The notes under the pieces are model-generated. The model was given only the letters and a program-made list of their open reading frames with translations, was not told the origin of the DNA and did no database searches. Positions 3,538 through 36,424 of a DNA stretch of 37,382 nt are shown piece after piece (within the stretch, counting starts at the first letter, position 1; each line of letters opens with the position of its first letter). Source of the DNA: Sandaracinaceae bacterium (GTDB taxonomy: Bacteria; Myxococcota_A; Polyangia; Polyangiales; JADJQN01); NCBI GenBank assembly GCA_947483975.1, contig CANKOL010000006.1, forward strand, positions 1 through 37,382, given 5' to 3'. The translations under genes and the position numbers were made by a program.

Positions 3538-3679
3538 TCACGGCTCGACGCCACCGCGTCGCCTGACTCCCGGCCCGTAGCGCGCCCCGCGTCAGCGCCC
3601 GAGCGCCGCCGCGTTGACTTCCAGACGTCCGCCAGCACGCTCCCGGGTCAGGTTACTTCCTTCCCCCGGAGCCTCGCCG

Positions 3680-6088
3680 ATGCGCTCTTCCCGACTGTTC
3701 GCAGTGTTCGCCGTCAGCTCGCTCCTCGTCTCTGCCGCCTGTGGCGGGACCCCGGAGGACCGCCCCGACAGCGCCGTCGACGCCGCCACCCCCGACGCTG
3801 CGCTCGACGCTTCGAGGCCTGATGGTGCCGTCGACGCTGGATCGGACGGCGCGGTGCTGGCCGACGCGGGCGATGACGCCGCGCTTCCCGAGCTCGACGC
3901 GGGCGATGACGCCGCGCTTCCCGACGTCGACGCCGGCTGCACCTCGAGCGCAGCCTGCGAGGACGGCGACCCCTGCACGCTCGACACCTGCGACTCCGGC
4001 ACCTGCAACTCGGTGCCTGTCGACCCTGACGACGGCGACCCCTGCACCGTGGACGGGTGCGATCCGGTCGTGGGCGTCACGCACACCGCCGTGCTGACGG
4101 ACGACAGCGACGTCTGCACCGTGGACGGCTGCGATCCGGTCACCGGCGTCACGCACACCGCGGTATTCACCGACGATAGCGACGCCTGCACCGTGGACTC
4201 GTGCGACCCGGTCACCGGCGTCGCGCACACGCCGGTCAGCGTCGACGACAGCAACGCCTGCACGGCCGACTCCTGCGCTCCCGCGACGGGCATCGCCCAC
4301 ACGCCCGTCAGCGTCGACGACAGCAACGCTTGCACGGCCGACTCCTGCGCGCCGCTGACGGGCATCGCGCACACGCCCGTCAGCGTCGACGACAGCAACG
4401 CCTGCACGACCGACTCCTGCGCGCCGGCGACGGGCATCGCGCACACGCCCGTGAGCGTCGACGACGGCAGCGTCTGCACCGTGGACTCCTGCGACCCGAC
4501 GACGGGCGTCGCGCACACGCCGGTCAGCACCGACGACGGCAACGGTTGCACGACCGACTCCTGCGACGCGACGACCGGCGTCGCGCACACTCCGGTGAGC
4601 GTCGATGACAGCAACGCGTGCACGCTGGACTCCTGTGCGCCCGCGACCGGCGCGGTGACGAACCTTCCGCTCACCCTCGGAACCCCCTGCAGCCAAGGCC
4701 TCGGCGTCGTGTGTGACGGCCTCGGCGCCTGCGTCGCCTACCCGGCGGTCGCCTCCACCACCCCGGCGGACGCCACCTCCGCGGTCGCGACCACCAGCCT
4801 CGCGGTGACGTTCACGACGGCGATGCGCCCCACGACCCTCACGGCTCAGACCGTGGCAGGCGCCTGCACCGGCAGCGTCCAGGTCTCGCTCGACAACTTC
4901 GCGACCTGCATCGCGCTCGCCTCGGCTTCCCCGGTCATGTCTGGCGGGGACACCGTCGCGACGCTGACCGCCGCCCCCGGGTTGCTCGTCAACCGCACCT
5001 ATCAGATCCGCGTGACGACCGCCGCCGCCGGCGCGACGGGCCTCCCGCTCGCCGCTCAGTTCACGACGCCCCTCGGCTTCATCACGGGCAGCCCCGACCT
5101 CTGCGCCGGGTCCGTGGTGATCGCGCAGGTGTACGGCGCTGGCGGGAACGTAGGCGCGCTCGTGCGCAACGACTACGTCGTGCTCCACAATCGCGGCGGT
5201 TCCGCCGTGAACCTCACCGGCTGGTCGGTGCAGTACGCGAGCGCGACGGGGACGAGTTGGGGGGTGGGCGCCCTCGCCGGAAGCATCGCCTCCGGGGGTT
5301 ACTACCTCGTCCAGGGCGCGAGCGGCGGTGCTGTTGGGGCCTTGCTGCCCACTCCGGACGCCACGACCAGCAGCAATCTGAGCGGCACGGTGGGCAAGGT
5401 CGCCCTCGTCACGAACACGACGGCCCTTGCGGTCGCGTGTCCGACGGGCGCTCCGATCGTCGACTTCGTCGGTTACGGCGCGACGACCTGCTTCGAGGGC
5501 ACCACCGCGACCCCCGCGCCTTCCAACACGACCGCCGTCCTCCGCGCGCAGACCGCCTGCGCCGACGTCAACAGCAACGGCGTCGACTTCGCGGTGGGAG
5601 CGCCCACCCCGCTGAACAGCGCCAGCCCCGTCGCGGTCTGCGCCTGCGCCGCGCTCGACGAGTCGGGCGTCGCCGCCGAGGCCGACTATTGCAACGTCCA
5701 GTTCCCGCTCTCGCTGAGCCTCGCGGCCGGCGCTGCGAGCGGCAACGTCTTCGGGCAGCTCTACGAGCTCGGCACGACCGAAGCGGCCGGCTCCTCGTCG
5801 GCCGTCCGCGCCCAGCTCGGCTTCGGCCCCCCCACCGCGAACCCCGAGTACGAGGCCGGCTGGTCGTGGACCAACGCCACCTACAACGTCCAGGTCGGCG
5901 CGAACGACGAGTACCAGGCGTCCTTCACGGCGCCCGGCTCCGGCTCGTACCGGTACGCCTACCGCTTCAGCCTCGACAGCGGCGTCAGCTGGACCGTCTG
6001 CGACCAGAACGCGGGCGACGGCGGAGCCGGTTCGAACGCCGGCCTCACGTTCGACCTCGCGAGCCTGCCCGTGCTGACCGTGCCGTAG
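3680..6088 (+). CDS. Secreted lipoprotein: acidic linker, ten ~24-aa Dictyostelium (CTDC)-like repeats, Ig-like domain, lamin-tail domain, C-terminal beta-sandwich
   Basis: ATG 3680 gives a signal peptide ending in lipobox LVSAA-C. Lamin-tail motif 'VVIAQVYGAGGN...NDYVVLHNRG...VNLTGWSVQYAS'. The C-terminal 'VFGQLYE.GTTE...AQLGFGP...NDEYQASFTAP..G.YRYAYRFSLD' module resembles domains of extracellular amylopullulanases. Confidence 0.85.
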   Translation: MRSSRLFAVFAVSSLLVSAACGGTPEDRPDSAVDAATPDAALDASRPDGAVDAGSDGAVLADAGDDAALPELDAGDDAALPDVDAGCTSSAACEDGDPCTLDTCDSGTCNSVPVDPDDGDPCTVDGCDPVVGVTHTAVLTDDSDVCTVDGCDPVTGVTHTAVFTDDSDACTVDSCDPVTGVAHTPVSVDDSNACTADSCAPATGIAHTPVSVDDSNACTADSCAPLTGIAHTPVSVDDSNACTTDSCAPATGIAHTPVSVDDGSVCTVDSCDPTTGVAHTPVSTDDGNGCTTDSCDATTGVAHTPVSVDDSNACTLDSCAPATGAVTNLPLTLGTPCSQGLGVVCDGLGACVAYPAVASTTPADATSAVATTSLAVTFTTAMRPTTLTAQTVAGACTGSVQVSLDNFATCIALASASPVMSGGDTVATLTAAPGLLVNRTYQIRVTTAAAGATGLPLAAQFTTPLGFITGSPDLCAGSVVIAQVYGAGGNVGALVRNDYVVLHNRGGSAVNLTGWSVQYASATGTSWGVGALAGSIASGGYYLVQGASGGAVGALLPTPDATTSSNLSGTVGKVALVTNTTALAVACPTGAPIVDFVGYGATTCFEGTTATPAPSNTTAVLRAQTACADVNSNGVDFAVGAPTPLNSASPVAVCACAALDESGVAAEADYCNVQFPLSLSLAAGAASGNVFGQLYELGTTEAAGSSSAVRAQLGFGPPTANPEYEAGWSWTNATYNVQVGANDEYQASFTAPGSGSYRYAYRFSLDSGVSWTVCDQNAGDGGAGSNAGLTFDLASLPVLTVP
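3863..3924 (+). repeat. Exact 29-bp direct repeat, 33-bp period (DAGDDAALP x2)
   Basis: gacgcgggcgatgacgccgcgcttcccga at 3863-3891 and 3896-3924. Confidence 0.9.
3956..4675 (+). repeat. Coding tandem repeat, 72-bp period, ten units
   Basis: A more divergent first unit at 3956, then units starting at 4028, 4100, 4172 ... 4604. Consensus DDSNACTxDSCxPxTGxAHTPVSV. Confidence 0.93.
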
Positions 6089-6339
6089 GTCGCCCTTGCC
6101 GGCGGGTGGAGTCGGTGCGCCGCGCCGACGCCGCCCTCGGCGGTAGAGGTCGGTTGCGCACGCGCTATCAGCGACTGGGACGGTCCTGATACTTTGCGCG
6201 CGTGTTTCTCTCTCCTCGCGCGGCTTTGCCGCTCCCGCGCTCGTCCAGCCCAGGCTGCCGGGCGCGAGCGGGATACCTCATCGAGGGGCAGTTCACGGCG
6301 GGCGCCCTCTGCGACGGCGCCGCGGTTCACGCGCGCCGT

Positions 6340-6510
6340 GGTTGCCACGAATTCGTCGCCCTATACTCGTGAAAAACAACGTGATAACGAGCGCTTGCAG
6401 TGCATCACTCTCCCTCCCACGCGGTCGCTCGCGGGGGCCGAATTCCTGTGCGTATTCACACGCACTTGGCCTGTCCGTCTTGACAGGGCCGAGCCGGGGG
6501 ATAGGTGCTC
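6340..6510 (+). promoter_or_regulatory. Probable promoter/operator region of the cytochrome operon
   Basis: AT-richer non-coding stretch. TTGACA at 6480-6485 sits inside inverted repeat CCTGTC-N6-GACAGG (6470-6487). A second inverted repeat GTGCGT-N6-ACGCAC is at 6448-6465, and TATACT is at 6362-6367. Confidence 0.45.
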
Positions 6511-6598
6511 GTCGACCGAGCAGCAGCAGCTGGACAGCTGTCGGCGCTGGTGACGTAGCTGAGGCGAATACCTCCACTACTCGCAGGAGACCGTGCCG

Positions 6599-7192
6599 AT
6601 GAGGGAGTCAGGTCGCAGCCGTGCCTCGATGAGTGCTCGCCCCACAATGGGGTTGTGGGCTGCAATCGTCCTATTGTTCGCCTTGCCGGTCGTGGCTTCG
6701 TGCGGCGGCGGGGGAGAGCCCGCTCATGCGCAGGGCGGGGAGCACGCCGGTGAGCCGTCGGTCCCCGACGCCGACATCGTCATTCCGCCGCGCACGACGC
6801 AACTCGCCACGTACCCCTGCGTCGAGCAGTGCCACGCCGACCGCGTGCCGAACGCCACCCCCCGTCCGCTCCGCGAGTTCCACTCCGCCAAGCACATCGA
6901 GCATGGCGACACGACCTTCTGGTGCAACTTCTGTCACAACTTCGACAACCTGAACACGCTCCACCTGCTCGACGGCCGCACGGCGTCGTTCGACGAGTCG
7001 CAGCGCCTCTGTGGTGAGTGTCACGGGGACAAGCGCCGGGACTGGGCCCTCGGCATCCACGGGCTGCAGACGGGCGCCTGGAACGGCGAGAAGACCCGCC
7101 GCAGCTGCACCGCCTGCCACGACCCGCATTCGCCACGCCGTCCGAGGTTCCAAGCCCTGCCGGCGCCGCACCCCCGCACAGGAGCGCGATGA
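6599..7192 (+). CDS. Tetraheme c-type cytochrome lipoprotein, CbcS-like
   Basis: AGGAG at 6585-6589 precedes ATG 6599 (alternative starts GTG 6593, ATG 6629). Lipobox VVAS-C. Heme motifs CVEQCH (CX3CH), CNFCH, CGECH, CTACH. Stop overlaps the next ATG. Confidence 0.88.
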   Translation: MRESGRSRASMSARPTMGLWAAIVLLFALPVVASCGGGGEPAHAQGGEHAGEPSVPDADIVIPPRTTQLATYPCVEQCHADRVPNATPRPLREFHSAKHIEHGDTTFWCNFCHNFDNLNTLHLLDGRTASFDESQRLCGECHGDKRRDWALGIHGLQTGAWNGEKTRRSCTACHDPHSPRRPRFQALPAPHPRTGAR

Positions 7193-8163
7193 GCGACGAT
7201 CAGAATACCTGCAGCGAGATCACGGACCAGAACCTCATCGACGATGAGGAACTCGCCGCGTCGCTGGTCGCCGGCGTCGAGATGGCACAGGCCACTCGAC
7301 GAAGCTTCCTCGCAACGATGGCTAGCGCTGCGGGGGCCGCGGTCGTCGCCTCCACCGGCTGCGACAGCGCTGTTTTCGAGAAGTACACTCAGAAGCACTA
7401 CAAGGAACTGTCGGCCGCCGACAAACTGAAGGTCATCGCGCGCATCGAGGCCGAGGCTCATGAGCGCTTCGGCATCGACGTGAAGGTGTCCGACCCGCAG
7501 CCGCTGCCAGGTGTCGGCTTCGCCTACGCGCTGAACCTGTCCTACTGCATCGGCTGTCGACGTTGTGAATACGCCTGCGCCCGCGAGAACAATACCTCGC
7601 GCGACCCCGAGATTCACTACATCCGCGTCCTCGCCATCGAGAAGGGCACGATGTCGGTCGAGGAGTCGGAGAGCAACTACACGGGAGCGGTCCCGGAGCC
7701 CGACAAGTACTACATGCCGGTGCAGTGTCACCAGTGTGACCATCCGCCATGCGTCCGCGCGTGCCCGGTTGAAGCGACGTGGAAAGAGAAGGACGGTCTC
7801 GTCGTCGTCGACTACGACTGGTGCATCGGCTGCCGCTACTGTGAGGCTGCCTGCCCATATTGGGCACGACGCTTCAACTTCGCTGAGCCGACGATCCGTC
7901 CGTCCGAGATCAATCCCATCCAGGGCCTCCTGAGCAACCGGGTCCGGTCGGTCGGCGTGATGGAGAAGTGCACGTTCTGTCTGCACCGCACGCGCAAGGG
8001 CCTCTACCCAGCGTGCCTCGAGGTCTGCCCGACGGGCTCGCGCAAGTTCGGGAATCTGCTCGACCCGAACAGCGAGGTCCGCCAGATCATCCAGAGCAAG
8101 CGCATCTTCGTGTTCAAAGAGGAGCTCGGGACCATCCCGCGCTTCTACTACTACTTCGACTGA
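7189..8163 (+). CDS. 4x[4Fe-4S] electron-transfer subunit, NrfC/DsrO/CbcT family, Tat-exported
   Basis: ATGA overlap with the upstream gene. Twin-arginine TRRSFL followed by a hydrophobic stretch. Cys groups CIGCRRCEYAC, CHQCDHPPCVRACP, CIGCRYCEAACP, KCTFC...PACLEVCP. C-terminal 'KEELGTIPRFYY'. Confidence 0.93.
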   Translation: MSDDQNTCSEITDQNLIDDEELAASLVAGVEMAQATRRSFLATMASAAGAAVVASTGCDSAVFEKYTQKHYKELSAADKLKVIARIEAEAHERFGIDVKVSDPQPLPGVGFAYALNLSYCIGCRRCEYACARENNTSRDPEIHYIRVLAIEKGTMSVEESESNYTGAVPEPDKYYMPVQCHQCDHPPCVRACPVEATWKEKDGLVVVDYDWCIGCRYCEAACPYWARRFNFAEPTIRPSEINPIQGLLSNRVRSVGVMEKCTFCLHRTRKGLYPACLEVCPTGSRKFGNLLDPNSEVRQIIQSKRIFVFKEELGTIPRFYYYFD

Positions 8164-8192
8164 GCGAGCGCTCCTTGACCCACACGCAATCC

Positions 8193-8819
8193 ATGCCTTC
8201 CCACGTGCTCGGACGTCTTGCGGCGGTTCTCTCGGTGGGGCTCGCTCTGCTCACCGCGTGCGAACCCAAGCCGACCTCCGAAAACCGTCCGCTGGCCGTC
8301 CGCGCGGCGGGAAAGCGCCTCGAGGACATCGCAGCCGGTGACATCTCCGGCAAGATCGGCGGGCGGCAGTTTCGCGCCGCTGATGTGAAGGTCCGAGTCG
8401 AGACGATGGCAGGTCGCGAGCGGGTCGATCTGCTCGTGTCGAGCGACCGCTTGACGCACTGCGGCCTGCCGGACCAGGCCCACGGTGCACGGGTGTGGGT
8501 TCGCTGGAAGGGTACCGTGCCGACTGACGGTACACCTCAGCGCCTCGAGCCTGGGCAGCATGGCGCGATGAGTGTCAACTATGAGTTCTTCGAGCATGAC
8601 CAGTGGGTGGCGCACAGCGGCGGTGCTGCGGTGGTCAGCATCACGCAGGCGTTTGGCGGGTACAGTGGTCGGCTGTGGATCTGCTTCGACGATGGGCGCG
8701 ATAGCTGCGTGACGGGCACCTTCACTGGCACCGAGTGTCGCTCCGAACTCGACGTCGATGACTCGGTCTGGGGAGCGGGAAGAGCAGAGATTCAGACTCC
8801 GACCAAGCGTGCTGAGTAG
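8193..8819 (+). CDS. Hypothetical lipoprotein (208 aa) inside the cytochrome operon
   Basis: ATG 8193, hydrophobic signal ending LLTA-C. The mature part looks beta-rich, has four Cys and no heme motif. C-terminal part of the 7968..8819 ORF. Confidence 0.75.
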   Translation: MPSHVLGRLAAVLSVGLALLTACEPKPTSENRPLAVRAAGKRLEDIAAGDISGKIGGRQFRAADVKVRVETMAGRERVDLLVSSDRLTHCGLPDQAHGARVWVRWKGTVPTDGTPQRLEPGQHGAMSVNYEFFEHDQWVAHSGGAAVVSITQAFGGYSGRLWICFDDGRDSCVTGTFTGTECRSELDVDDSVWGAGRAEIQTPTKRAE

Positions 8820-9031
8820 GTCTTCAGATGTGATGTGAAGGTGCGCGAGCGCGTCGGTGGCACGAGCCTCCACTAGCCTCTCGAGCGAGCGCGTGCCCCA
8901 GCCGTGACCCCATCCGTGGGCGCGAAGCTGCGGTCACCGGCCCAGCAAGCGCTCGCAGGACGCTCGAACGAGAGAGGCACCGGCGTGCCACCGAGCACGG
9001 GTTGGGTGGTCTCGCAGAGGAAGGAAAGTAC

Positions 9032-9166
9032 GTGTCTGTTCTGCGTGCGCAGCCAGTGGATGTCGGTCCGGACGCGCTCGGCGACCTGGTGGCTGCGCGT
9101 GCTCCGCGGGCAGACGTTTTCCTCGCGGCGCAGCGGACGTTCGCGCCGGCCGTGGGGTGCTCATGA
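9032..9166 (+). CDS. Candidate 44-aa small ORF (MSVLRAQPVDVGPDALGDLVAARAPRADVFLAAQRTFAPAVGCS)
   Basis: Purine-rich GAGGAAGGAAAG at 9017-9028 precedes GTG 9032. Its TGA (9164-9166) overlaps ATG 9163 of the next gene. Too short to appear in the ORF track. Confidence 0.35.
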   Translation: MSVLRAQPVDVGPDALGDLVAARAPRADVFLAAQRTFAPAVGCS

Positions 9167-10434
9167 CCGCCGTGTGGCGTGTGCGCGCGCTCGGGTTCGC
9201 GGTGCTCGGCGCAGCCTGGATGCTCGGGGGCGTGCCGGTTGCCGCGGCGGATGAGACCTGCGTCGAGTGTCATCGTATGCAGCGCGTAGCGCGGCTGCGC
9301 GCACCCGCCGAGCAGCTCCCCGAGAGCATCCACGGGCGCAATCACGTCACCTGCAGCGATTGCCACGGAGGGCGTCCCGACGAGCCATCCGCGCGAGCCC
9401 ACGACCTCGAGGCCGGCTTCAGGGCTCGCTTCGCGGCTGGTGCGCAGCCGGCCATCTGCGGTGGCTGTCACTCGGATGCCCTGCGAATGGGGGCGGTCGA
9501 GCCCGGCCTCCCGACCGACCAGCTCCAACTCTACAACAGCAGCGTCCATGGGCGCGCGTTCGCTGCGGGCAACACGCGCGCTGCGACGTGCGCTGCCTGT
9601 CATGGTGCGCACGATGTGCGAGCCGTGAGCGATCCGGCGTCGCCGGTCAGTCTGCACAACATTGCCGGCACGTGTGGTCGTTGCCACTCCGATCGGACGC
9701 TCATGAGCGGGCTCGGTATGCCGCATGACGAGGAGCGCCAATGGCGCCACAGCGTGCACGGGCGGGCGTACGAGCGATGGATTGCGCGCTCCGGACCAGG
9801 TGCCTTGGCGCGCGACGAGCGGCACCCGCCGACGTGCAGCGACTGTCACTCCGACCACGCCGTAGCCGACCGGACCGCCGCCGTCGCGGGCTGTAGGCGG
9901 TGCCATGGAGAAATGTGGCAGTCCTTCGAGGCTGGGCCCCACAAGGTGGGCTTCGATCGGATGGGCTTCTTGCCCTGTGTGGATTGCCACGGGAGCCACG
10001 AGGTCTCGTCGTCGGACGCGAGCTTCATCGGCGTCGACCGCGACACGGTGTGCAGACGCTGCCACTCCGAGGGCCAGCGGATGTTCGAGACCATTCGGGA
10101 GCTCGGCGTCGAGGTCGGCGCGGCTGAGCACGCCGCCGACAACGCGCGGGCGGCCCTCGTCGGCGCGCCGGTTGGCGCACTCGAGTCCAAGCTTCGCCCC
10201 ATCGACGAGGCCCGCCACGCTCTCCGCCTCGCGATTCACTCGCTGAACAAAGACCGGATCCGCGCGGCCGCCACGCTGCTGAAGACGAGGGCGGAGAGGA
10301 TCCCAGTGCCGACTGACTCGTCGTCGGCCGTGGTCGCGGTGGTGGCGAGCTGGGGGCCACCGGCGGCGCTGGTCCTCGTGGGTGTCGCCCTGTTGGTCTT
10401 CGCCTTCTGGCGGCGGCGCGGAGGAAAGAAATGA
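9163..10434 (+). CDS. Nonaheme c-type cytochrome with signal peptide and C-terminal membrane anchor
   Basis: Nine CXXCH motifs (CVECH, CSDCH, CGGCH, CAACH, CGRCH, CSDCH, CRRCH, CVDCH, CRRCH) with recurring S(I/V)HG ligand motifs. Signal ends VAAA-D. Helical stalk, then TM helix and RRRGGKK. Confidence 0.92.
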   Translation: MTAVWRVRALGFAVLGAAWMLGGVPVAAADETCVECHRMQRVARLRAPAEQLPESIHGRNHVTCSDCHGGRPDEPSARAHDLEAGFRARFAAGAQPAICGGCHSDALRMGAVEPGLPTDQLQLYNSSVHGRAFAAGNTRAATCAACHGAHDVRAVSDPASPVSLHNIAGTCGRCHSDRTLMSGLGMPHDEERQWRHSVHGRAYERWIARSGPGALARDERHPPTCSDCHSDHAVADRTAAVAGCRRCHGEMWQSFEAGPHKVGFDRMGFLPCVDCHGSHEVSSSDASFIGVDRDTVCRRCHSEGQRMFETIRELGVEVGAAEHAADNARAALVGAPVGALESKLRPIDEARHALRLAIHSLNKDRIRAAATLLKTRAERIPVPTDSSSAVVAVVASWGPPAALVLVGVALLVFAFWRRRGGKK

Positions 10435-12626
10435 CCTCGGGTCCCCGCTGGCCGCTCGTGATCGCGGGTGTTCTGTCCCTCGTGGCGGGTGCGATCGTCT
10501 TCGCGACGCCTCGCATACAACACCGTTTGAACAGCTCCGCCTACTGCGCGAGTTGTCACACGGAAGCCGCGTCTCACACAGGTCGTCACTCACGGACGAC
10601 CTGCCAATCGTGTCATCCGCTCCCGACGGGCCAAACGGTTCGCCTCGTGTGGGCGGCGGTCTCGGGCGGTCGCGGGATGCCTCCGCACGGGCGGCTCGAC
10701 GAGACCTCCTGTACGACTTGCCACGAGAAGAACGAGCGCACATGGAGCGCGCTCGTTCGCACGGAGGGGCATTCTTCTCACGCGATCGCCCCGGTCTTGG
10801 TCCGCTGCGTGCGTTGCCACTCCTCGGGGCTCCACGCGAAGCCGACCGCGCGCGAGCGGTGCGAGTCGTGCCATCAGAACACGATCACGCGCCGGGACGG
10901 AGTTGCGACGGTCGAGTGCCAACGCTGTCACCTCTTTGGGCCGCGTCGTGGCCCCGAGCAGGCCAGGCTGCCGGGCTCTTGGGGCGCCGACATCTCAGGG
11001 GCGAACGTGCATGGCTCGGCCGACTGCCGCCTGTGCCACAATCCGCATCGACCGGCGGCGCAGCAAGAGGCCGCGCGCGCGGTCGTCTGCACGAGTTGCC
11101 ACCGCGGTGAGCTCGCGCGTTCGGTCACGCACGCCCCCGCGAATCACCAAGACTGCAACAAGTGTCACCGGCCTCATGGGCTGAGGGCTGAGCTCGCGAC
11201 CGCTTGTGCGGTGTGTCATACGGCACCGCGTTCGCGAGGCACGCTCCACGACCCCGGCGTCCCGCCGGAGATGCGGAACGTCGCGAGCATCGCCCCCATC
11301 CTCGCCGCGCGTACCGGGCCGCCGCCGCCCGTTCCCGGCGTGACCCACGGCGGGCGCTGCGCGAACTGCCACGAGCCGCACGCGTGGACGCCCAACCGCA
11401 ACATCTGTCGGAGCTGTCACGCGGACAAGGCGGCGAAGGTCGATCGCTTGCCGGCCAACACGCACAGCTGCATCGGTTGTCACGAGCCGCACTCCCCGCC
11501 GCCGGCCGCGAGTGTGTGTGGCGAGTGCCACACAGCGAACGCGTCGACTATCCGTTCTGCACCGGCGCGCCATCGTGACTGCCTCTCGTGCCACCAGGCC
11601 CACGAAGGTCGACCGAACGCCGCGACCGTCTGCGGCGCGCGCTGCCACCAGGCTCAAGCCAACGCGCTACGCGATGGGCAGCCGCGACACCGCGCGTGCA
11701 CGACCTGCCACGGCGCCCACGCCAATCCCATCGCGGGCGCGGCGACTCGTTGCCAGACCTGCCACTCGAGCGAGTGGACGCAGTTCAGCCAAGGCAACAA
11801 GCACCAGACCTGCGCTCGCTGCCACTCGAATCATCAGTTTACGCGGGCGAACGCCCAGGGGCGTTGTCAGACCTGCCACCAAGCGCCGGGCGCGCCCGGA
11901 GCCTCTCATCGTGGGCAGTGTCTGACGTGTCACACGCCGCACGCCGCGGGGCGCGGACCCGCAGCGAATTGCGCGTCCTGCCACGGTAGTCGGATCCGGC
12001 CGACCGTGCCGCAACACGCCGCGAACTGCGCTGGCTGCCACAAGCCTCATCTCGCGGCAGCGACCGCCAGCACCCAGTGCGGGACGTGCCACGCGGACAA
12101 GGCCCGCGTCGCCGCCGCCTGGCCGACGAACGCGCCCCACGGCCCAGGTCGTTGTGCCGAGTGTCACACGGCCCACGACGAGGGCCGCCCGCGGCAATGC
12201 GCGTCCTGCCACGCCAACAAGGCGAATCCGGGCCACATGGGCGCCCACCCAAACTGTATCGGCTGCCACGCGCCGCACGTGGCCCCCCCCGCCGGCCCGA
12301 GCCCCGCGCGCTGGTGGGGCCGGTGTGGCACCTGCCACACGGCTGAGGCGCGGATGGCCGCGACCGGTCGGCCCGAGCACCAGCAGTGCGCCAACTGCCA
12401 CAATCGGCCAGGCCGCGTGCCGCCGACCTGCATCAGCTGTCACACCCGGATCACCACGGTCGGCGCCCATCAGCGCCCCGAGCATCGTGACTGCCTCACT
12501 TGTCACACGAGTCACGGAACCACTCCGCCGACTCGCGCCAAGTGTGTCGCGTGCCATACGGATCGACGCACCCACTTCGCAGACGCGCCTCAGTGCCAAT
12601 CCTGCCACCCGTTCCGACCCGATTGA
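10431..12626 (+). CDS. 33-heme c-type cytochrome, N-terminally membrane-anchored, NapC/NirT-like head plus diheme repeats
   Basis: Hand count of 32 CXXCH plus one CX3CH (CGARCH) in 731 aa. Single N-terminal hydrophobic helix. ATGA overlap with the upstream gene. Confidence 0.93.
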   Translation: MTSGPRWPLVIAGVLSLVAGAIVFATPRIQHRLNSSAYCASCHTEAASHTGRHSRTTCQSCHPLPTGQTVRLVWAAVSGGRGMPPHGRLDETSCTTCHEKNERTWSALVRTEGHSSHAIAPVLVRCVRCHSSGLHAKPTARERCESCHQNTITRRDGVATVECQRCHLFGPRRGPEQARLPGSWGADISGANVHGSADCRLCHNPHRPAAQQEAARAVVCTSCHRGELARSVTHAPANHQDCNKCHRPHGLRAELATACAVCHTAPRSRGTLHDPGVPPEMRNVASIAPILAARTGPPPPVPGVTHGGRCANCHEPHAWTPNRNICRSCHADKAAKVDRLPANTHSCIGCHEPHSPPPAASVCGECHTANASTIRSAPARHRDCLSCHQAHEGRPNAATVCGARCHQAQANALRDGQPRHRACTTCHGAHANPIAGAATRCQTCHSSEWTQFSQGNKHQTCARCHSNHQFTRANAQGRCQTCHQAPGAPGASHRGQCLTCHTPHAAGRGPAANCASCHGSRIRPTVPQHAANCAGCHKPHLAAATASTQCGTCHADKARVAAAWPTNAPHGPGRCAECHTAHDEGRPRQCASCHANKANPGHMGAHPNCIGCHAPHVAPPAGPSPARWWGRCGTCHTAEARMAATGRPEHQQCANCHNRPGRVPPTCISCHTRITTVGAHQRPEHRDCLTCHTSHGTTPPTRAKCVACHTDRRTHFADAPQCQSCHPFRPD

Positions 12627-12663
12627 TGCTGCGCAGCGCGCGCGCACGCCCTGGAGGCTCCCA

Positions 12664-13962
12664 ATGCTCATCGTCCGCTACCTGAACTTCTGGCTCCAGA
12701 TGGTCCTGTTCGCAGCGCGCGGCGGGAAGCGGTTCTATGCGTGGGTCCTCTCGCTCGCGCTCGTCGCGGTCTTCGGCGCGTATCACTACTACGAGCACGT
12801 GGTCGTTGGGCTCAGCGTCACCAACATGAGTGACCAGGTGAGCTGGGGCATCGGGATCGCGAACTTCGTGTACTTCGTCGGCGTCGCGGCGTCCGCGGCG
12901 CTGATCATCACGCCCGCCTACGTGTTCATGCGCAAGGACATCAAGGAGGTTGTGCTCATCGCGCAGGTCCTCGCGTTCGTCGCGGTCGTCCTCTGCCTGC
13001 TGTTCATCGTCACCGACATGGGCCGTCCCGAGCGCCTCTGGCACATCATGCCGCTGCTCGGGAAGCTCAACCTGCCGGGCTCCCTCCTCGCTTGGGACGT
13101 GGTCGTGTTCAATGGATACATCGTCCTGAACCTGCACATCCCCGGCTACCTCCTCTGGAAGCGCTACAACGGCGTCGAGCCGAACCCGTGGGCGTACCTC
13201 CCGTTCATCTTCATCGCGATGGGCTGGGCCGTGAGCCTCCACGTCGTGACCGCGTTCCTGCTGGGTGGCCTCGGCAGCCGCCACTTCTGGAACACTGCCA
13301 TCCTCGCCCCACGCTTCCTCATCACGACGGGCGCGTCTGGCCCGGCGCTGCTGACGCTGATCTTCTACGCCGTGCGCCGACTCACCCCGCTTCACGTCAA
13401 GGACAGCGTCTTCGAGTACCTGCGGACGGTCATGCAGGTGACGCTGCCGATCAACTTCTTCCTGATCGGCTGCGAGGTCTTCTACGAGTTCTACACGGGC
13501 AAGCTGACCTCGGCGTCCGCGCAGTATCTCTACTTCGGGCTCCATGGGTACCATGGCCTCACGGTCATCATCTGGTCGGCCGTCGCGATGAACACGATCG
13601 CGATGGCCCTCTTGCTCAGCAGCCGGACGAAGCTCCTCTCGTGGGTTCACTTCCTCGCGTGCGGGCTCACGATCTTCGGGATTTGGATCGAGAAGGGAAT
13701 GGGCCTGATCTTCCCCGGGTTCACGCCGACTCCACTCGGCGAAATCGTCGAATATTTCCCCTCGCTAGCCGAGACGTCGGTGAACGTCGGCGTGCTCGCC
13801 GTGGGAATACTGCTCTTCACCCTCATGGCGAAGGTCGTGATCGGGATTCAGTCGGGAGAACTCCGCCTGCCGGGGGGGGACGCGCTGCCCACTCTTCCAG
13901 TGCCGAGCGAGGATTCGGCGCCTGTCGACACGGTCTCCCCGGAGCCGACGCCGACTGCGTGA
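12664..13962 (+). CDS. NrfD/PsrC-family quinol-interacting membrane subunit (DsrP/CbcU-like), copy 1
   Basis: GGAGG at 12653-12657 precedes ATG 12664. About 10 TM helices. Motifs 'GLSVTNMSDQVSWG..IANF..FVG.AA', 'DMGRPERLWH', 'S.L.WD', 'IWIEKG', 'EYFPS..E'. Confidence 0.93.
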   Translation: MLIVRYLNFWLQMVLFAARGGKRFYAWVLSLALVAVFGAYHYYEHVVVGLSVTNMSDQVSWGIGIANFVYFVGVAASAALIITPAYVFMRKDIKEVVLIAQVLAFVAVVLCLLFIVTDMGRPERLWHIMPLLGKLNLPGSLLAWDVVVFNGYIVLNLHIPGYLLWKRYNGVEPNPWAYLPFIFIAMGWAVSLHVVTAFLLGGLGSRHFWNTAILAPRFLITTGASGPALLTLIFYAVRRLTPLHVKDSVFEYLRTVMQVTLPINFFLIGCEVFYEFYTGKLTSASAQYLYFGLHGYHGLTVIIWSAVAMNTIAMALLLSSRTKLLSWVHFLACGLTIFGIWIEKGMGLIFPGFTPTPLGEIVEYFPSLAETSVNVGVLAVGILLFTLMAKVVIGIQSGELRLPGGDALPTLPVPSEDSAPVDTVSPEPTPTA

Positions 13963-14400
13963 GCCGCTGAGCTACGCTGCCGTCGACCCAGCTCGTCGTT
14001 CACGAGGCGCACTCCGTGTTCGGAGCCAGTGAAGGACCGAAGGGCGGACGTTTGTGGGCGCCGCCGTCGACGCCGTGTAGGAACTCAGAAGGGCGGCGAC
14101 GAGCGCGACCGTCGGGGCCCCTGTTCTCGGCGCGGCGGCCTCGTCGGCGATAGCGGGTCCTTCTCGTGGGCGGTCGGTCAAGAAGAACAGGGTCCAGCTC
14201 CTCGGTGGGTCTCAGGCCCCTGACGATCAGGTGCCGATTCCACCGAACGTCGCCGTGCGCAGGTGCCCCTTCCGCGAGGAATCCGGCGGAGGGCCTCGTC
14301 CCATCACCTCACCGTGCTCGGGCGGGGCTTCGCGGTGCCCTCGGCCCTGGTCCGGCGAGCGCCGTCGCACGCCGTCGCACGCTTCCTGACCCACGAACGA

Positions 14401-14483
14401 CAACGCCTCGCTCGATGGTCGAGCGAGGCGTTGGGTGTTGGTCCCGGCGTTCCAGGGCGAGACGCGCTGCCGTCCGTCTCGCC
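14401..14483. terminator. Two hairpins between the convergent NrfD genes (terminator or 3'-stabilising structures)
   Basis: Perfect 15-bp stem CAACGCCTCGCTCGA-tgg-TCGAGCGAGGCGTTG (14401-14433) and 9-bp stem GGCGAGACG-N10-CGTCTCGCC (14456-14483), just downstream of the stop at 14497. No U-tract. Confidence 0.6.
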
Positions 14484-14496
14484 TCGAGTCACACGC

Positions 14497-15888
14497 TCAG
14501 GGCTTGCTCTCGCGTGGGGTACGCGCACCGCTGCGCGGAACGTATGCGGGCTGTTGCGCGTGGGGCTGGTGCGGCGCGAACGCCTTGCCGAGGCGCGCAG
14601 GCTGCGGCTGAGGCTTGTAGAGGCCGGGGCGGACAGGTTCGGGGCGCGGTTGGAAGAACGCTCGGTGGGCGAAGGGATCTGGAAGCCGGAGCTCCCCGGT
14701 CTGGATGCCGACCGCCACCTTGGCCATGATCGTGAAGATCAGGGTGCCGATCGCAAGCACGCCGCAGCTGACCGCGATCTCCCCGAGTGACGGCGAGTAT
14801 TCGACGATCTCACCGAGCGGCGTGGGAATGAAGCCCGGGAAGATGAGTCCCATCCCCTTCTCGATCCAGATGCCGAACACTGCCAGGCCACAGGCCGTCA
14901 AGTGCATCGGGGTCAGGATCTTCGTGCGCTTGTTGACGAGGAGGGCGATGGCGAGGACGTCCATCACGATGGCCGTCCAGAAGATCTTCGTGAGGAAGCC
15001 GTTGCTGCCAAACCCGAAGTAGAGATAGCGGCCCGACGCGGCGGACAGCATTCCCATATACAACTCGTGGAAGGCCTCGCAGCCGAGGAGGAAGAGGTTC
15101 ACGGGCAGCGTGACCTTCATGACCTCCTTGAGGTACACGAAGACGCTGTCCTTCACCTTCAGCGGCGTGTTCAGCCGTACGATGTAGAAGATGAACGTGA
15201 GCAGCGCCGGGCCGGACGCGCCAGCGCTGATCAGAAATCGCGGGGCGAGGATCGCGGTGTGCCAGAAGTGCCTGGCGCCGAGGCCGGCGAGCAGGAACGC
15301 AGTCACCACGTGAATGCTCAGTGCCCAGCCGATGGAGATGAACACGAACGGCAGATATGCCCAGCCGTTGGGCTCGATCCCGTTGTAGCGCTTCCATAGG
15401 AGGTAGCCCGGGATGTGCAGGTTCAGGACGATGTAGCCGTTGAACACCAGCACGTCCCACGAGAGCATCGAACTCGGGAGGTTGAGCTTCCCGATGGGCG
15501 GCATGAGGTGCCAAAGCCGCTCGGGACGGCCCACATCGGTGACGATGAACATCAGGCAGAGGATGATCGCGACGAACGCGAGGATCTCGCCGAGCAGCAC
15601 GACCTCTTTGATGTCGGCGCGGTGGTAGACGTACGCCGGTGTGACGAGCACCGCCGCGGCCGCCGCAACACCCACGAAGTACACGAAATTCGCGATGCCG
15701 AGGCCCCAGCTCACCTGGTCGTTCATGTTGGTGACGCTGAGACCGATCGTGATGTGCTCGTAGTAGTGAAACGCACCGTACAGCGCGATCAGCGAGAGCG
15801 ACACGACCCAAGCGTAGAAGAGCCTCCCTCCGCGCGCGGCGAAGGTGACCATGTGAAGCAAATACGACAGATAGCGGACGATCAGCAT
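14497..15888 (-). CDS. NrfD/PsrC-family membrane subunit (DsrP/CbcU-like), copy 2
   Basis: Collinear paralogue of 12664..13962, from the shared MLIVRYL start to GIQxGELRLP. Contains 'DVGRPERLWH'. GGAG precedes the ATG. Longer Pro/Gln-rich tail. Confidence 0.93.
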   Translation of the reverse strand: MLIVRYLSYLLHMVTFAARGGRLFYAWVVSLSLIALYGAFHYYEHITIGLSVTNMNDQVSWGLGIANFVYFVGVAAAAAVLVTPAYVYHRADIKEVVLLGEILAFVAIILCLMFIVTDVGRPERLWHLMPPIGKLNLPSSMLSWDVLVFNGYIVLNLHIPGYLLWKRYNGIEPNGWAYLPFVFISIGWALSIHVVTAFLLAGLGARHFWHTAILAPRFLISAGASGPALLTFIFYIVRLNTPLKVKDSVFVYLKEVMKVTLPVNLFLLGCEAFHELYMGMLSAASGRYLYFGFGSNGFLTKIFWTAIVMDVLAIALLVNKRTKILTPMHLTACGLAVFGIWIEKGMGLIFPGFIPTPLGEIVEYSPSLGEIAVSCGVLAIGTLIFTIMAKVAVGIQTGELRLPDPFAHRAFFQPRPEPVRPGLYKPQPQPARLGKAFAPHQPHAQQPAYVPRSGARTPRESKP

Positions 15889-16177
15889 CGGCAGTCTCCG
15901 GCCCGCGCCATCCCCGTCACCGAGAGAACGCGACTAACCTGCGACGTGCGGGTAAGCCCATTTGCCGCCGCTAGCAGGCGGACCAGGCGTCCGCCTTGCG
16001 TCGCGTCGCCCGTCGTGTCGGGGGGCGAATGCAGGAATTCACACGGGTTCATGCGCCACATTCCTGCTCGTTTCCGCTATTTTCACTGGGTCGCACTCCG
16101 TCGTCGGACACGGCCCGGCTCGCCGCACGCAGGGAGACGACTCCCCCGGTCGACCGTCCGCTCGACGCTGGTCCACG

Positions 16178-17038
16178 TCAGATGGTGGTCTTGGAAGGGA
16201 CCGCGATCTTACGAAGCAGCTCGGCGCTCGAGTTGCCCATCATGTCGACGACCGAAGACGGCACGACGACGACGGTCGAATTGTGCCGCATTCCCTCGAG
16301 CAGCACGCTCATCGCCCGCAGATGCAAGGCGGTCGGGTTGTCGATGTACGACTTTGACGACTCGGCGAACATCTCCGAGACCTTGCGCTCAGACTGGGCG
16401 AGGATGATTCGGGCCTGGCCTTCCTTGTCCGCCTGCGCCTGCATCGACATGGCGTCCTGCAGGCCCTGCGGGATCCGCACGTCCCGGATCTCGACCGCGA
16501 CGACCTGAATGCCCCAAGGCTCGGTCCTCGCGTCGATGATGCCGCGGAGCATCTCGTCTACCTTGTCGCGGCCGGAGAGCATCAGCGCGAGCTCGGTCTT
16601 GCCGATGACCTCACGCAACGCAGTCTGGGCCGCCCAGAAGATGGCGTCGCGGTAGTACTCGAGCTCGAGCGCCGCCTTCGCGGGATCGACGACGCGCCAG
16701 AAGAGAACGGCGTCCACGTCCATCGGGACGGTGTCCTTGGTCAGCGTCTGCTCAGCGTTGAACGGCGTCGCCACGGTGCGGGTGTCCACCCACATCGTGA
16801 TCGTGTCGAAGAGCGGGAGCACGAAGAACATTCCCGGGCCCTTGAGGCCGTGGAACTTACCGAGGCGCAGGACGACGGCCTTTTGCCACTGCTTGCCGAC
16901 GCGCACGCTGAGCGCGATCAGCACCGCGAGGGCGACGAGGACACCGGGGATGAGTGGATCTCGGAGCGTGGCCCCGACCAACCCAGCCAGCCCGAGGAGT
17001 GCCAGCACGATACTGACGATCAGCGGATGGAGAACCAT
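16178..17038 (-). CDS. SPFH/band-7 (stomatin/slipin) family membrane protein
   Basis: N-terminal TM hairpin; 'AVVLRLGKF...GPG.FFVLP..D', 'LTKDTVP.DVDAVLFW.V.DP', 'AQTALREVIG', 'WGI.V..VEIRDV.IP..LQDAM..QAQA'. Confidence 0.93.
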   Translation of the reverse strand: MVLHPLIVSIVLALLGLAGLVGATLRDPLIPGVLVALAVLIALSVRVGKQWQKAVVLRLGKFHGLKGPGMFFVLPLFDTITMWVDTRTVATPFNAEQTLTKDTVPMDVDAVLFWRVVDPAKAALELEYYRDAIFWAAQTALREVIGKTELALMLSGRDKVDEMLRGIIDARTEPWGIQVVAVEIRDVRIPQGLQDAMSMQAQADKEGQARIILAQSERKVSEMFAESSKSYIDNPTALHLRAMSVLLEGMRHNSTVVVVPSSVVDMMGNSSAELLRKIAVPSKTTI

Positions 17039-17265: not shown

Positions 17266-17655
17266 GTGAAAAGTCTCGCCGTGAAATACGAGCCCGAGTC
17301 GCGGTCGCTTCAGTTCGCATCCGCGGACGAATTGGACGCGTTTCATCGCGAGCTCACCGGTCTGCTCCGGGAGGTGACGATCTCGGTCAGCTCGACCACG
17401 AAAGACGCCAACGAGGCCCGCGACCGTGCCCGCGAAGTCCTGCGCGAGTTCAAGGTCGTGACGCGCATCCTCAACGCCATCCGCAAGCGCGCCGACCGCC
17501 CCGACCGCGTCGAACCAGGGCGCGCCGGGCCTCGCGTGGAGGCCGAGCCGGAGGGAGGCGACGCGGTCGTGGCGGAGCCCGCCATGAGTAGCGACGCGAG
17601 CGGTGCGTCGGATCCGGGGCCTGCTCCCGAGGTCGCGCGCTTGCGGCCGGAGTAG
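17266..17655 (+). CDS. Hypothetical protein (helical core, acidic/Pro-rich tail)
   Basis: Coding-like codon bias from GTG 17266/17281 within the 17149..17655 ORF. No recognisable motif; start uncertain. Confidence 0.55.
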   Translation: MKSLAVKYEPESRSLQFASADELDAFHRELTGLLREVTISVSSTTKDANEARDRAREVLREFKVVTRILNAIRKRADRPDRVEPGRAGPRVEAEPEGGDAVVAEPAMSSDASGASDPGPAPEVARLRPE

Positions 17656-18229: not shown

Positions 18230-19597
18230 ATGGAGCATCGAGGCGGTCGATTGGTTTCGCTGGTTTCGCTGGTTTGGCTGGGAGGCGTGTGTGCTGCGGT
18301 GCTGCTCACGAGCGGGCGGGCCCGCGCGCAGGACGCGGGGCCTGTGGTGGCCGACGCGGGGGTCGACGCAGGCGTAGCGCCGGCGACGCAGCCTGAAGAC
18401 GGGGCGGATGCGGCTGCGGGAGCGCCGGCGGACACCAGCGCGGAAGAGGCCGAGATCGCCGCCGAGATGGCCGCGATGCAGGAGGCCCAAGCGGCCGAGG
18501 GGGGCGGCGCGGACAGTCCTCCGCCGGCGAGCGAGTCGAGCGGAGCGACGGGTTCTTCGCGCGGCTTGAGCAACCTGATGAACCCCGCGATCAGCGCTGC
18601 GGGCACGCTCGTCGGTGGCTTCAGCTCCCGCGCGGACGGGACGGTCGGCGGCGCGCCGGATGATCTGCGCTCCGGGATCGACGTGCAGGAGGTCGAGATC
18701 CGCGCGAGCGCCATCGTCGATCCGTTCTTCCGCGCCGACGTCAGCATCACCGGAAACACCGAGGGAATCGCCGTCGAGGAGGCGTTCATCACGACGCTCG
18801 AGCTCCCACGCTTGACGCTCCGCGCCGGGCAGTTCGCGGCGAACCTCGGCCGACACAACATCCTGCACACGCACGCCTTCCCGTTCATCACCGCGCCGCT
18901 GCCGTGGCGCGCGCTGCTCGGGCCGGAGGGGCTGCGCAGCCCCGGCGTGTCGGCCGATCTGCTGTTGCCGCTGCCGTTCTACGCGGAGCTCAACGCGCAG
19001 GTCTTCGCCGGCGAGTGGTCGCTGCTCGAGGGCAGCATCCCGGACGACCCGCTCACCGTCGCCAACGAGAGCGTCCCCGACCGACGCAGCGACCGCGACC
19101 TCGCGTACGTCGGGCACCTGAAGACGCTGTTCGACCTCGGCGAGCCGACGACCCTCGAGCTCGGCGTGAGCTACCTGGGCGGTCGCAACGGCTTCGGAGG
19201 CTTCACGAACGTCGTCGCGGGGGACGTCACGCTCAAGTGGCGCCCGCTCGAGTCGGAGCGCTACTTCGGCTTCGACTGGACGACCGAGTACCTCTGGGTG
19301 CAGCGCGGCGAGGCGCCGAGCGACCGAACGACGGGCGGCGCGTACACGGCGATGCGCCTGCAGTTCGGGCAGCAGTGGTGGATTCAAGTCCGCGGCGCGC
19401 TGCTCGGGCTCCCCGCGGGGGACGCGGGGCGCGTCTGGCGCGCAGAGGCGCTCGCCGCGTTCGTCCCGAGCGAGTTCTCGGCGATTCGCCTGCAGTACGC
19501 GATCGAAGCCGATGAGTCCGGCGCCGCGCCGCCGGTCCACGAGGTCTTCGCGCAGATGGTCTTCTCGGTCGGCCCACACCCCGCACACGCGTATTGA
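18230..19597 (+). CDS. Outer-membrane beta-barrel associated with Zn/Mn-type ABC uptake operons
   Basis: Signal peptide ending ARA-Q, acidic linker, 'MNPAIS', 'VQEVE...AIVDPFFRAD', 'VEEAFITT..LP', 'GRHN.LHTHAFPF', 'PSEFSAIRLQY', C-terminal GPHPAHAY. Sits directly upstream of the binding protein and permease. Confidence 0.8.
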   Translation: MEHRGGRLVSLVSLVWLGGVCAAVLLTSGRARAQDAGPVVADAGVDAGVAPATQPEDGADAAAGAPADTSAEEAEIAAEMAAMQEAQAAEGGGADSPPPASESSGATGSSRGLSNLMNPAISAAGTLVGGFSSRADGTVGGAPDDLRSGIDVQEVEIRASAIVDPFFRADVSITGNTEGIAVEEAFITTLELPRLTLRAGQFAANLGRHNILHTHAFPFITAPLPWRALLGPEGLRSPGVSADLLLPLPFYAELNAQVFAGEWSLLEGSIPDDPLTVANESVPDRRSDRDLAYVGHLKTLFDLGEPTTLELGVSYLGGRNGFGGFTNVVAGDVTLKWRPLESERYFGFDWTTEYLWVQRGEAPSDRTTGGAYTAMRLQFGQQWWIQVRGALLGLPAGDAGRVWRAEALAAFVPSEFSAIRLQYAIEADESGAAPPVHEVFAQMVFSVGPHPAHAY

Positions 19598-19614
19598 TCG
19601 AAGGAGTGAACCCC

Positions 19615-23129: not shown

Positions 23130-23455
23130 GACCGGCCGCTCGGGGCAGGCCCTCGTCGAGACCGATCGCACCGAGCGGTGGCCTGACGCTCGGGCGGAGG
23201 GCCTCGGCCCCGCGCCAGATCAGCGCGGGCCCAGCCGCGGGCGCCGTCTGCGGCGTCTCGCCGAGCGCCTCACGGAGGTGTCAGCGGCGCCCCCACCATC
23301 GCCTTCTGGACGACGAGCGGCACGTCGGGCGGCACGTTCTCGCGCACGCCGCCCGAGAGATCGTCGAGCACGACGACGTCGTGCCGACGCGCGCGGAGGG
23401 CACGCACGAGGTGCGCGCCGAGGAACCCCGCGCCGCCGGTGACGAGGACCGTCAA
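23130..23455 (-). pseudogene. NAD-dependent epimerase/dehydratase remnant
   Basis: TTG 23455 overlaps the upstream stop. Rossmann start TVLVTGGAGFLGAHLV...VVVLDDLSGG.REN, stop at 23272-23270 after 61 codons. A degenerate C-terminus-like segment (LREALGETPQT...IGLDEGLP) follows in another frame. Left boundary approximate. Confidence 0.75.
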
Positions 23456-31759: not shown

Positions 31760-31860
31760 GAATATTCTCCGCTCCGGTGTCAGCACCGGAGTCAATCGTT
31801 CGACAGTGGGATGGAGGTGCTGCCGTGCTGCGCGAGCGCGCGCGGCCGCCCTGAGCTCGC

Positions 31861-36240: not shown

Positions 36241-36424
36241 GGGGTCTACCTTGGGCGAGGGCCTTGGGGGGGCTGAAGAGGCCACGCCGCGACGGAGCTG
36301 ATCGTCGAGCGGGGGCCGAGGCAATAGCACGTCGAAGCGCACCGTGGTACCGGGCCGCCCCCTCCGGCGTGCCTCGGCGACGCGTTTGGCTCGTTACGGC
36401 GCCTCTCGCCGGCCGGGCGAAGCC

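Follow-up and report, generated by a model that had tools for sequence, protein, structure and literature searches.

The crossing of the periplasm by electrons is settled only for diffusing shuttles, while fixed bridges of approximately 27 hemes have been predicted repeatedly (PMC11492766, PMC5566968, PMC7096707), without a defined test case. Among these proposals are the PCC3 periplasmic cytochromes, with a median of 21 hemes, proposed to bridge both membranes (PMC5566968), and the periplasmic wires bridging both membranes that are predicted in Desulfuromonadia (PMC11492766); a membrane-associated, NapC-like nonaheme cytochrome of Ferrigenium straubiae has also been proposed to be an inter-membrane nanowire (10.64898/2026.01.22.701106). 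Cytochrome length is described as linear in heme number, with ~27 hemes for a periplasm of 200 Å and 630 Å for 86 hemes (PMC7096707); with 86 hemes per protein already in print, a very high heme count is no novelty by itself. Here, we have analysed a stretch of 37,382 nucleotides from a Sandaracinaceae bacterium (contig CANKOL010000006.1 of assembly GCA_947483975.1; “the window”), in which a single gene encodes a 33-heme cytochrome c with a head of the NapC/NrfH type. The idea of a periplasm-spanning cytochrome is published; what is new is an undescribed, well-conserved architecture, assembled from known parts, that makes the idea testable. In the open literature, subscription journals being mostly outside this coverage, we found no 33/34-heme family with a NapC-type head described. 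A lake survey has found Myxococcota to be the richest in unassigned multiheme clusters (10.1101/2022.03.26.485925), and the available parts of PMC11475568 and PMC12133095 make no mention of Myxococcota.

With the NapC/NirT/NrfH proteins (NrfH, CymA, ImoA) and with ImcH, the 33-heme cytochrome shares a single helix before a tetraheme head and the same layout of hemes and histidines; in contrast to NrfH, CymA and ImcH, its family is without the lysine-bearing segment, and the heme-1 methionine and the distal Gln/Asp are mostly gone. Beyond the head, there are 29-30 hemes in the family, none in NrfH and CymA and three in the ImcH of Geobacter (10.1101/2023.05.03.539133); ImcH has three membrane helices and approximately seven hemes, whereas the 33-heme cytochrome has one helix and 33 hemes. 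The diheme repeat His-CXXCH-x2-His-CXXCH is shared with MtrA and STC, with MtrA being a top structural match; however, the 33-heme cytochrome has three times the hemes of MtrA and a putative inner-membrane anchor, while MtrA sits within its porin and, by the published description, cannot span the periplasm (PMC7096707). Only the type of repeat is common to the 33-heme cytochrome and the MtrA/DmsE decahemes. The PCC3 and Desulfuromonadia wires are alike in the very low number of residues per heme and in the clustering with porin and inner-membrane redox genes; by the available descriptions, all of them are proposals, periplasmic, variable in heme number and from other phyla, with no NapC-derived anchor mentioned. 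The PCC3 clusters are defined by a porin, an extracellular cytochrome and a five-helix inner-membrane protein; the membrane proteins encoded near the 33/34-heme genes are NrfD, cytochrome b6-like, b561-like and ImcH-like. The Ferrigenium straubiae cytochrome is alike in its NapC-like architecture, but has nine hemes; both comparisons are made by description. Lastly, the Cbc4 (CbcSTU), CbcL, CbcBA and ImcH modules and the porin-cytochrome conduits of Geobacter match the family neighbours in make-up, but small triheme shuttles are described as linking the modules there (PMC7096707), while the family clusters encode a long anchored chain.

At somewhat better than an even chance, we favour the reading that the 33-heme protein is an inner-membrane-anchored, non-catalytic wire, leading from separate quinol oxidases to an outer-membrane conduit; the uncleaved anchor, the assignment of the ligands, the extended shape, the partners, the outward direction and the respiration of an outside acceptor are what we infer, and the gene itself, the numbers of hemes and histidines, the ancestry and decay of the head, the conserved neighbours and the barrel fold of the conduit gene are what the analysis shows. 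The N-terminal helix and the NapC-derived tetraheme head, having lost its own quinol site, would fix the wire at the inner-membrane surface; a separate, neighbouring module would oxidise quinol, and the electrons would enter the wire near the head. In the window, the donor would be a nonaheme cytochrome along with a trio of tetraheme, 4Fe-4S and NrfD-type proteins, while in relatives it would be a Rieske/cytochrome b/nonaheme complex, or a CbcL-like or ImcH-like protein. The electrons would then run along ~29 further bis-His hemes (~21-24 nm, if extended) to the C-terminal cap, which would meet the periplasmic cytochrome of a porin-cytochrome conduit, and the wire would replace diffusing shuttles. 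A broader statement, which we put forward tentatively and at less than an even chance, is that a dead quinol-dehydrogenase head anchors a length-tuned wire that links interchangeable bc-type, CbcL-, ImcH- and CbcSTU-like modules to the conduit, as a common myxobacterial design with a 27-heme lipoprotein sister; if true, shuttle-free spanning of the periplasm and respiration outside the cell would be common in a myxobacterial order. The gene and its parts are the following:

10431..12626, + strand: 33-heme cytochrome c, member of the 33/34-heme family, 731 residues.
10431..10850, + strand: NapC/NrfH-derived head, with the helix at ~8-27, hemes 1-4 and a deletion-shortened amphipathic helix without the quinol-binding lysine.
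10851..12527, + strand: heme chain, hemes 5-31, built of diheme repeats (STC/MtrA type) in which each heme has a conserved spare histidine.
12528..12623, + strand: conserved C-terminal cap, hemes 32-33, with invariant His715 and Phe728, common to the headless sisters of 25-29 hemes.

The gene contains 32 CXXCH motifs and one CX3CH motif (residue 401, heme 16), compared with a mean of 0.48 and a maximum of 5 CXXCH motifs in 2000 composition-preserving shuffles. All 66 cysteines are located within heme motifs and 37 histidines outside them; there are 22.2 residues per heme and 2.36 kDa of peptide per heme, which places the protein in the class of pure electron-transfer cytochromes, defined by less than 5 kDa of peptide per heme (PMC7096707). 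Hydropathy gives a single hydrophobic segment, at residues 8-27; no methionine is located two residues past the heme-1 motif, and the diheme repeat runs from heme 7 onward, with one histidine in nearly every gap. An earlier reading, made from the sequence alone (“the sequence-only reading”), had listed these same features, i.e. a 33-heme frame with ~22 residues per heme and one CX3CH, an N-terminal hydrophobic helix, a heme-1 motif without the methionine of CXXCHXM, and a diheme repeat with about one spare histidine per heme, all of which hold. It had also described the chain as arginine-rich and acid-poor, which is true of the 33-heme cytochrome itself (K+R 78 vs D+E 39), but is not a family trait, because the net charge varies from -48 to +61 across 75 relatives, with 22 of them net negative; arginine-richness was rejected as a functional trait, and so was the CX3CH motif as a special site, as 10 of the same 75 relatives have it at heme 16 and 23 have it at heme 1.

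These relatives come from a protein search with the 33-heme cytochrome, where, among the best 120 of 346 matches, the first 75 span 85-100% of the query; 33 hemes are present in 35 of them, 34 hemes in another 35 and 29-31 hemes in 5. The relatives that carry a name are Polyangiales, Sandaracinaceae, Myxococcales and similar, all of them metagenome-assembled. With two candidates scored per genome, 45 of the 401 genomes sampled from the order have a match to the family profile (expectation value, E, of 1e-150 or better), the family tier lying at or above 517 bits and the next tier at or below 357 bits; no member was found in the three remaining genomes from the same taxonomic family as the query, including a same-genus genome that is 94% complete. 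A search without length limit gave 253 pooled proteins, which we sorted by head and C-terminal cap: both are present in 110 (24-36 hemes, with 33 or 34 hemes in 95), the cap without the head in 93 (25-29 hemes in 85, 27 hemes in 60), the head without a scored cap in 7, and neither in 43, with a heme range of 19-151; the narrow heme number is partly a search effect, because ranking by score favours proteins of similar length, and kin are not independent. Several genomes carry two 33/34-heme paralogues, located in two of them no more than ~16 kb apart; a second, 34-heme paralogue is found directly before ImcH-like and CbcL-like genes in nine loci (L100, L104, L152, L154, L156, L160-L163). In locus L176 (G709:C22), the family copy is apparently split into frames of 15 and 17 hemes, by sequencing errors or decay, and the cytochrome b gene upstream of it is fragmented.

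The alignment of the headless sisters (25-29 hemes, mostly 27) runs from about residue 105 to the end of the query, and a lipobox-like cysteine is present in 31 of the 45 that were examined with a crude pattern. Their anchors are a lipoprotein or a helix; the chain and the cap are common to both families, while hemes 1-3 are not; thus, another anchor can take the place of hemes 1-3, with chain and cap retained. The 27 hemes of the sisters equal the number estimated in print for a 20-nm periplasm. On the published scale of ~7.3 Å per heme, 33 hemes would give 24 nm and 29 hemes 21 nm, if extended, which falls within the 20-30 nm of the sequence-only reading. The sister proteins are P0076-P0120 and ~50 more (e.g. 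in loci L177, L178 and L106); they adjoin the same porin or NrfD modules.

The spare histidines were counted per gap, without an alignment. In the 35 members with 33 hemes, 33 spare histidines have a presence of at least 90%, for 33 hemes; in the 34-heme members, 33 reach at least 90% and the 34th is present in 83%. The histidine between hemes 29 and 30 is absent in 34 of 35 33-heme members, which gain one before heme 27, and 33 of 35 34-heme members have the reverse pattern, with none of the 70 being without both; this swap probably happened just once, between two clades. As far as these counts go, the pattern fits selection for one distal histidine per heme, in an all bis-His chain with no obvious open site.

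The gene neighbourhoods of relatives were compared in 69 loci, where 63 matches correspond to 55 distinct family genes; all counts are within the locus DNA covered. A nonaheme (41), ImcH-like or CbcL-like gene is located no more than 700 bp away from 54 of the 55 genes, with the exception lying on a 3.7-kb contig. Part of the trio is present in 38 of 55, a Rieske and cytochrome b pair in 31, a porin gene in 34 and an MtrC-like decaheme in 8, while ImcH-like proteins adjoin 13 family genes. A catalytically dead connector is expected to adjoin several unrelated quinol modules, but always one of them, and the observed neighbourhoods fit this expectation; since the partners are Geobacter- and MtrC-like, the direction of the electrons would be outward. 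The Rieske protein and cytochrome b precede the nonaheme gene in 31 of the 41 nonaheme loci and are absent in 10, including the window. In most relatives, a 13-heme gene, a porin gene and a second 13-heme gene are situated between a lipoprotein gene and the nonaheme gene, where the window has a short gap; the conduit of this genome is found on another contig:

G000:C3:15701-22396 (L109:7702-14013): 13-heme, unnamed beta-barrel, 13-heme and 8-heme genes.

The porin located between the two 13-heme genes is predicted as a beta-barrel of ~22 long strands, with a predicted local distance difference test score (pLDDT) of 88, and every fold match listed for the model is an outer-membrane barrel (best E 1e-9). 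Searches of Pfam, NCBIfam and the Atlas placed it in no named family, whether MtrB, ExtB or another, the listed fold matches do not include MtrB, and the porin was left without a family assignment. The porin family is present in 44 of the 45 genomes that carry the 33/34-heme family and in 104 of the 356 others (148 of 401 in total), counts in which an unpublished genome (G723) is included among the 104 and kin are not independent. Read from the gene clusters, this context supports a role of the 33-heme family in extracellular electron transfer. On contigs G000:C64, C320, C100 and C150, the same genome encodes further large cytochromes: two decahemes resembling MtrC/OmcA, a protein of 23 hemes that has CX4CH motifs, and the product of a 13-heme gene that adjoins another barrel-like gene.

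The predicted model of the 33-heme cytochrome has a mean pLDDT of 81.7 and a predicted template modelling score (pTM) of 0.41. Its residues 274-476 align to MtrA over 178 residues (Z 5.2, root-mean-square deviation, rmsd, 3.7), residues 458-522 align to STC, which is also the best sequence match of the chain, and residues 332-522 align to HAO and hydrazine dehydrogenase (HDH), whose heme chains are curved (Z 5.7, rmsd 7.8). In the model, the local packing is of the common diheme kind, and the curved HAO/HDH chains rank level with MtrA, at worse rmsd. With regard to wires of concatenated triheme c7 domains (GSU1996), the family profile matches 3ov0 at E 6e-18, amid many multihemes, but the heme spacing repeats in twos, and no c7 chain is among the structural matches listed. 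The cut-off of the MtrA/DmsE model TIGR03508 is not reached (25.3 bits, cut-off 192.2). In a complex prediction, the head (residues 1-270) and the nonaheme protein had a median of 0.18, where the mark is 0.32, a score that we take neither for nor against a contact.

Because the extended shape is a prediction, the main rival of the wire is a tethered heme capacitor or a sideways bus, its chain lying along the inner membrane or coiled near it, which would store up to 33 electrons or link quinol modules to one another, while small carriers cross the periplasm; we regard this as a possibility of lesser weight. The low pTM and the curved matches suit it, as do the long, Pro-rich insert that separates heme 10 from heme 11 in 33-heme members (median gap 46), which could be a hinge, and the genomes where each of two copies adjoins a different quinol module; moreover, the adjacency to inner-membrane modules (54/55) is tighter than that to the porin (34/55). 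Storage, however, would need neither a fixed heme number nor a conserved C-terminal cap, and the porin family is present in 95 of the 97 genomes with any long-chain match.

The reading of the protein as a wire depends also on its head. Searched against Cytochrom_NNT, residues 1-140 are matched (E 3.6e-4, 20.7 bits), but below the curated cut-off of 24.1 bits, and a Pfam scan of the whole 731-residue protein does not list this family; 3 of 4 distant family members tested pass the cut-off. In addition, the NCBIfam model TIGR03153 matches the head region (E 1.8e-4), NrfH is the best solved-structure match of one distant relative (E 7e-7), and residues 10-140 of the predicted model align to NrfH over 115 residues (Z 4.9, rmsd 5.0), a middling alignment that we use only jointly with the profiles. 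Since these lines agree, the head descends from NapC/NrfH, and the NapC/NirT-like head of the sequence-only reading is borne out by the NrfH alignment, the solved-structure match and the distant relatives.

The quinol site of the head appears to be lost. Lys91 of CymA, which is the equivalent of Lys82 of NrfH, is required for the interaction with quinol (PMC2762525); both correspond to Lys173 of ImcH, where a glutamine, six residues on, is located at heme 1 (10.1101/2023.05.03.539133), the roles of the NrfH residues being taken from papers citing the NrfH structure. The lysine of NrfH sits 12 residues past the heme-2 histidine (His70, from the alignment). We compared 71 family heads (4 of the 75 were excluded, with the head missing or cut) with 12 ImcH-like controls from the same loci: a lysine at +12 is present in 12 of 12 controls and in 0 of 71 heads, the spacing between hemes 2 and 3 is 45 in the former and 29-35 in the latter, and eight alignment columns around the lysine are a gap in 71 of 71 heads, including those that bear the methionine. 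The position of the ImcH glutamine is occupied by leucine in 53 of 71 heads, among them Leu72 of the 33-heme cytochrome, and glutamine is kept in 9. In a wider set of 117 heads, CXXCHXM is kept in 12, one head has a lysine at +12 in the shortened spacing, and one has the long spacing without the lysine. Heme 1 of the NapC/NirT/NrfH proteins has an open or non-His distal site (Met/Asp, His/Gln or His/water). The heme-1 site of the 33-heme cytochrome is without CXXCHXM and has a leucine at the Gln/Asp position, with histidines enough for all hemes; the absent methionine is not decisive for function, because CymA functions without it (PMC13390432). In a tree with the ImcH-like outgroup, three Met-bearing heads are closest to the outgroup, but with a long outgroup branch, 141 columns and no clade test, this is only a hint of the order in which the head changed.

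Judged by these residues, the head reads as an anchor with a lost quinol site and looks catalytically dead. An intake of electrons from quinol by the head itself, for which the sequence-only reading had suggested a quinol assay, is not supported, as the lysine segment is deleted and a leucine takes the place of the distal polar residue of heme 1; for the same two reasons, the quinol chemistry most likely takes place in the products of the neighbouring genes, which that reading had left out. The alternative nearest to that reading is a fusion of a self-sufficient quinol oxidase with a wire, in which the head would oxidise menaquinol at heme 1 via a remodelled site, and we consider it improbable: the membrane helix, the amphipathic helix and the layout of hemes 1-3 are retained, the example of CymA would excuse the methionine, and some of the members with CXXCHXM or glutamine may be active, but the lysine needed in CymA and NrfH is deleted in 71 of 71 heads, Leu72 occupies the polar position, the headless sisters manage without hemes 1-3, and a complete quinol module is nearly always next door. 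Very unlikely, lastly, is a protein that acts at or beyond the outer membrane, with its helix cleaved or its chain threaded through the porin: the end of the helix has, as read from the sequence, a small-residue pattern that signal peptidase might accept, the family gene is directly upstream of the porin gene in several loci, and threading has been suggested for the 86-heme protein (PMC7096707), but, in every relative measured except one, 8-18 residues separate the helix from heme 1, a placement shared with NapC proteins, whose anchors are uncleaved (PMC13390432; 10.1101/2023.05.03.539133), and the porin gene always precedes its own 12/13-heme gene, where the locus DNA reaches.

Several points weigh against the anchored, non-catalytic wire. 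The preference of the searches for similar lengths and the non-independence of kin affect the conserved heme number; the estimate of 27 hemes is for a periplasm of 20 nm, from which the width in these organisms may differ; the equality of histidines and hemes does not prove each ligand, with the 34th histidine of the 34-heme members at just 83%, and ImcH keeps similar head histidines, yet has His/Gln on heme 1 (10.1101/2023.05.03.539133). The pTM of 0.41, the middling Z-scores and the curved HAO/HDH chains, which fit as well as MtrA, bear on the predicted extended shape. With respect to the partners, the conduit of this genome is on a contig other than that of the window, and no Rieske/cytochrome b pair was found in the genome (81% complete); moreover, the porin conduit can exist without the long chain, as 53 of the 148 porin-bearing genomes have no family-profile match at 1e-60.

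The family offers a test case for fixed bridges: an anchored chain, conserved in length, for which the gene clusters name the donor and acceptor modules, along with natural variants for testing: with or without the head, with 24-36 hemes, and with or without the heme-1 methionine. It also offers a genetically encoded 20-nm conductor. Extracellular electron transfer is pointed to in approximately one tenth (33/34-heme family) to one third (porin family) of the sampled genomes of the order.

The genes that surround the 33-heme gene in the window are the following:

6647..7192, + strand: tetraheme cytochrome with a lipobox-like cysteine, at the CbcS/DsrJ position.
7189..8163, + strand: 4Fe-4S dicluster protein with a twin-arginine-like leader, of the CbcT/DsrO/NrfC type (NCBIfam DsrO 164.8 bits, cut-off 200).
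8190..8819, + strand: lipoprotein that falls into no known family, found at 37 of the 55 loci.
9163..10434, + strand: nonaheme cytochrome with a signal peptide, a C-terminal membrane helix and a CbcA/CbcL-type heme domain.
12664..13962, + strand: NrfD/DsrP-type membrane subunit at the CbcU position, the likely quinol site (DsrP 332.8 bits, cut-off 350).
14497..15888, - strand: second NrfD/DsrP-type membrane subunit (DsrP 346.5 bits, cut-off 350).
17281..17505, + strand: small protein of ~75 residues with no family match, present in 22 of 55 loci.

The trio formed by the tetraheme, 4Fe-4S and membrane subunits has the make-up of Geobacter Cbc4 (10.1101/2025.04.14.648717). Sulfur metabolism of the DsrJOP type was rejected for it: the DsrO and DsrP cut-offs are not reached, and no dsrM- or dsrK-like gene was seen in the window, the rest of the genome not being searched. 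The two NrfD/DsrP-type paralogues are convergent and accompany a single pair of 4Fe-4S and tetraheme proteins. The lipoprotein, which adjoins the trio, has unnamed Myxococcota and Gemmatimonadota clusters as its neighbours in the Atlas. The ~75-residue protein often follows the long cytochrome directly or adjoins the NrfD gene, and could possibly be a regulator or an assembly factor. In another locus (L104:15822-18708), four near-identical genes of ~115 residues are found in tandem between CbcL-like and NrfD genes.

The start codon of the 33-heme gene overlaps the stop codon of the nonaheme gene; a promoter check at the locus gave nothing sigma-70-like, and terminator-like sites were no more frequent than by chance. 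The third-position G+C of the gene (0.80) lies below the genome median (0.91), and the G+C content falls to 63-71% at 6000-17000 of the window, with flanks of 70-76%; together with the absence of the family from the three genomes of the same taxonomic family, the low G+C hints at an acquisition of the locus from outside. Recent tandem duplication was rejected as the origin of the chain, the DNA self-matches being just short and weak. One lake metatranscriptome contained 0.08 of the words, and short contigs, 91-99% alike, fall on several genes, two of them on the 33-heme gene; relatives or DNA are possible sources.

Further along the window, genes for an outer-membrane-like protein, a metal-binding protein and a permease are found at 18230-21368 (+), in what we take to be a Zn/Mn ABC-type system, followed at 21429-22349 by what is presumably a sigma-32-like factor, both as read from the sequence. 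Large surface proteins with Cys-rich repeats, of the kind found in myxobacteria, are encoded at 3614-6088 (+) and at 23452-25674, 27254-31795 and 31861-36342 (-), the first of these with Dicty_CTDC, Big_5 and lamin-tail domains.

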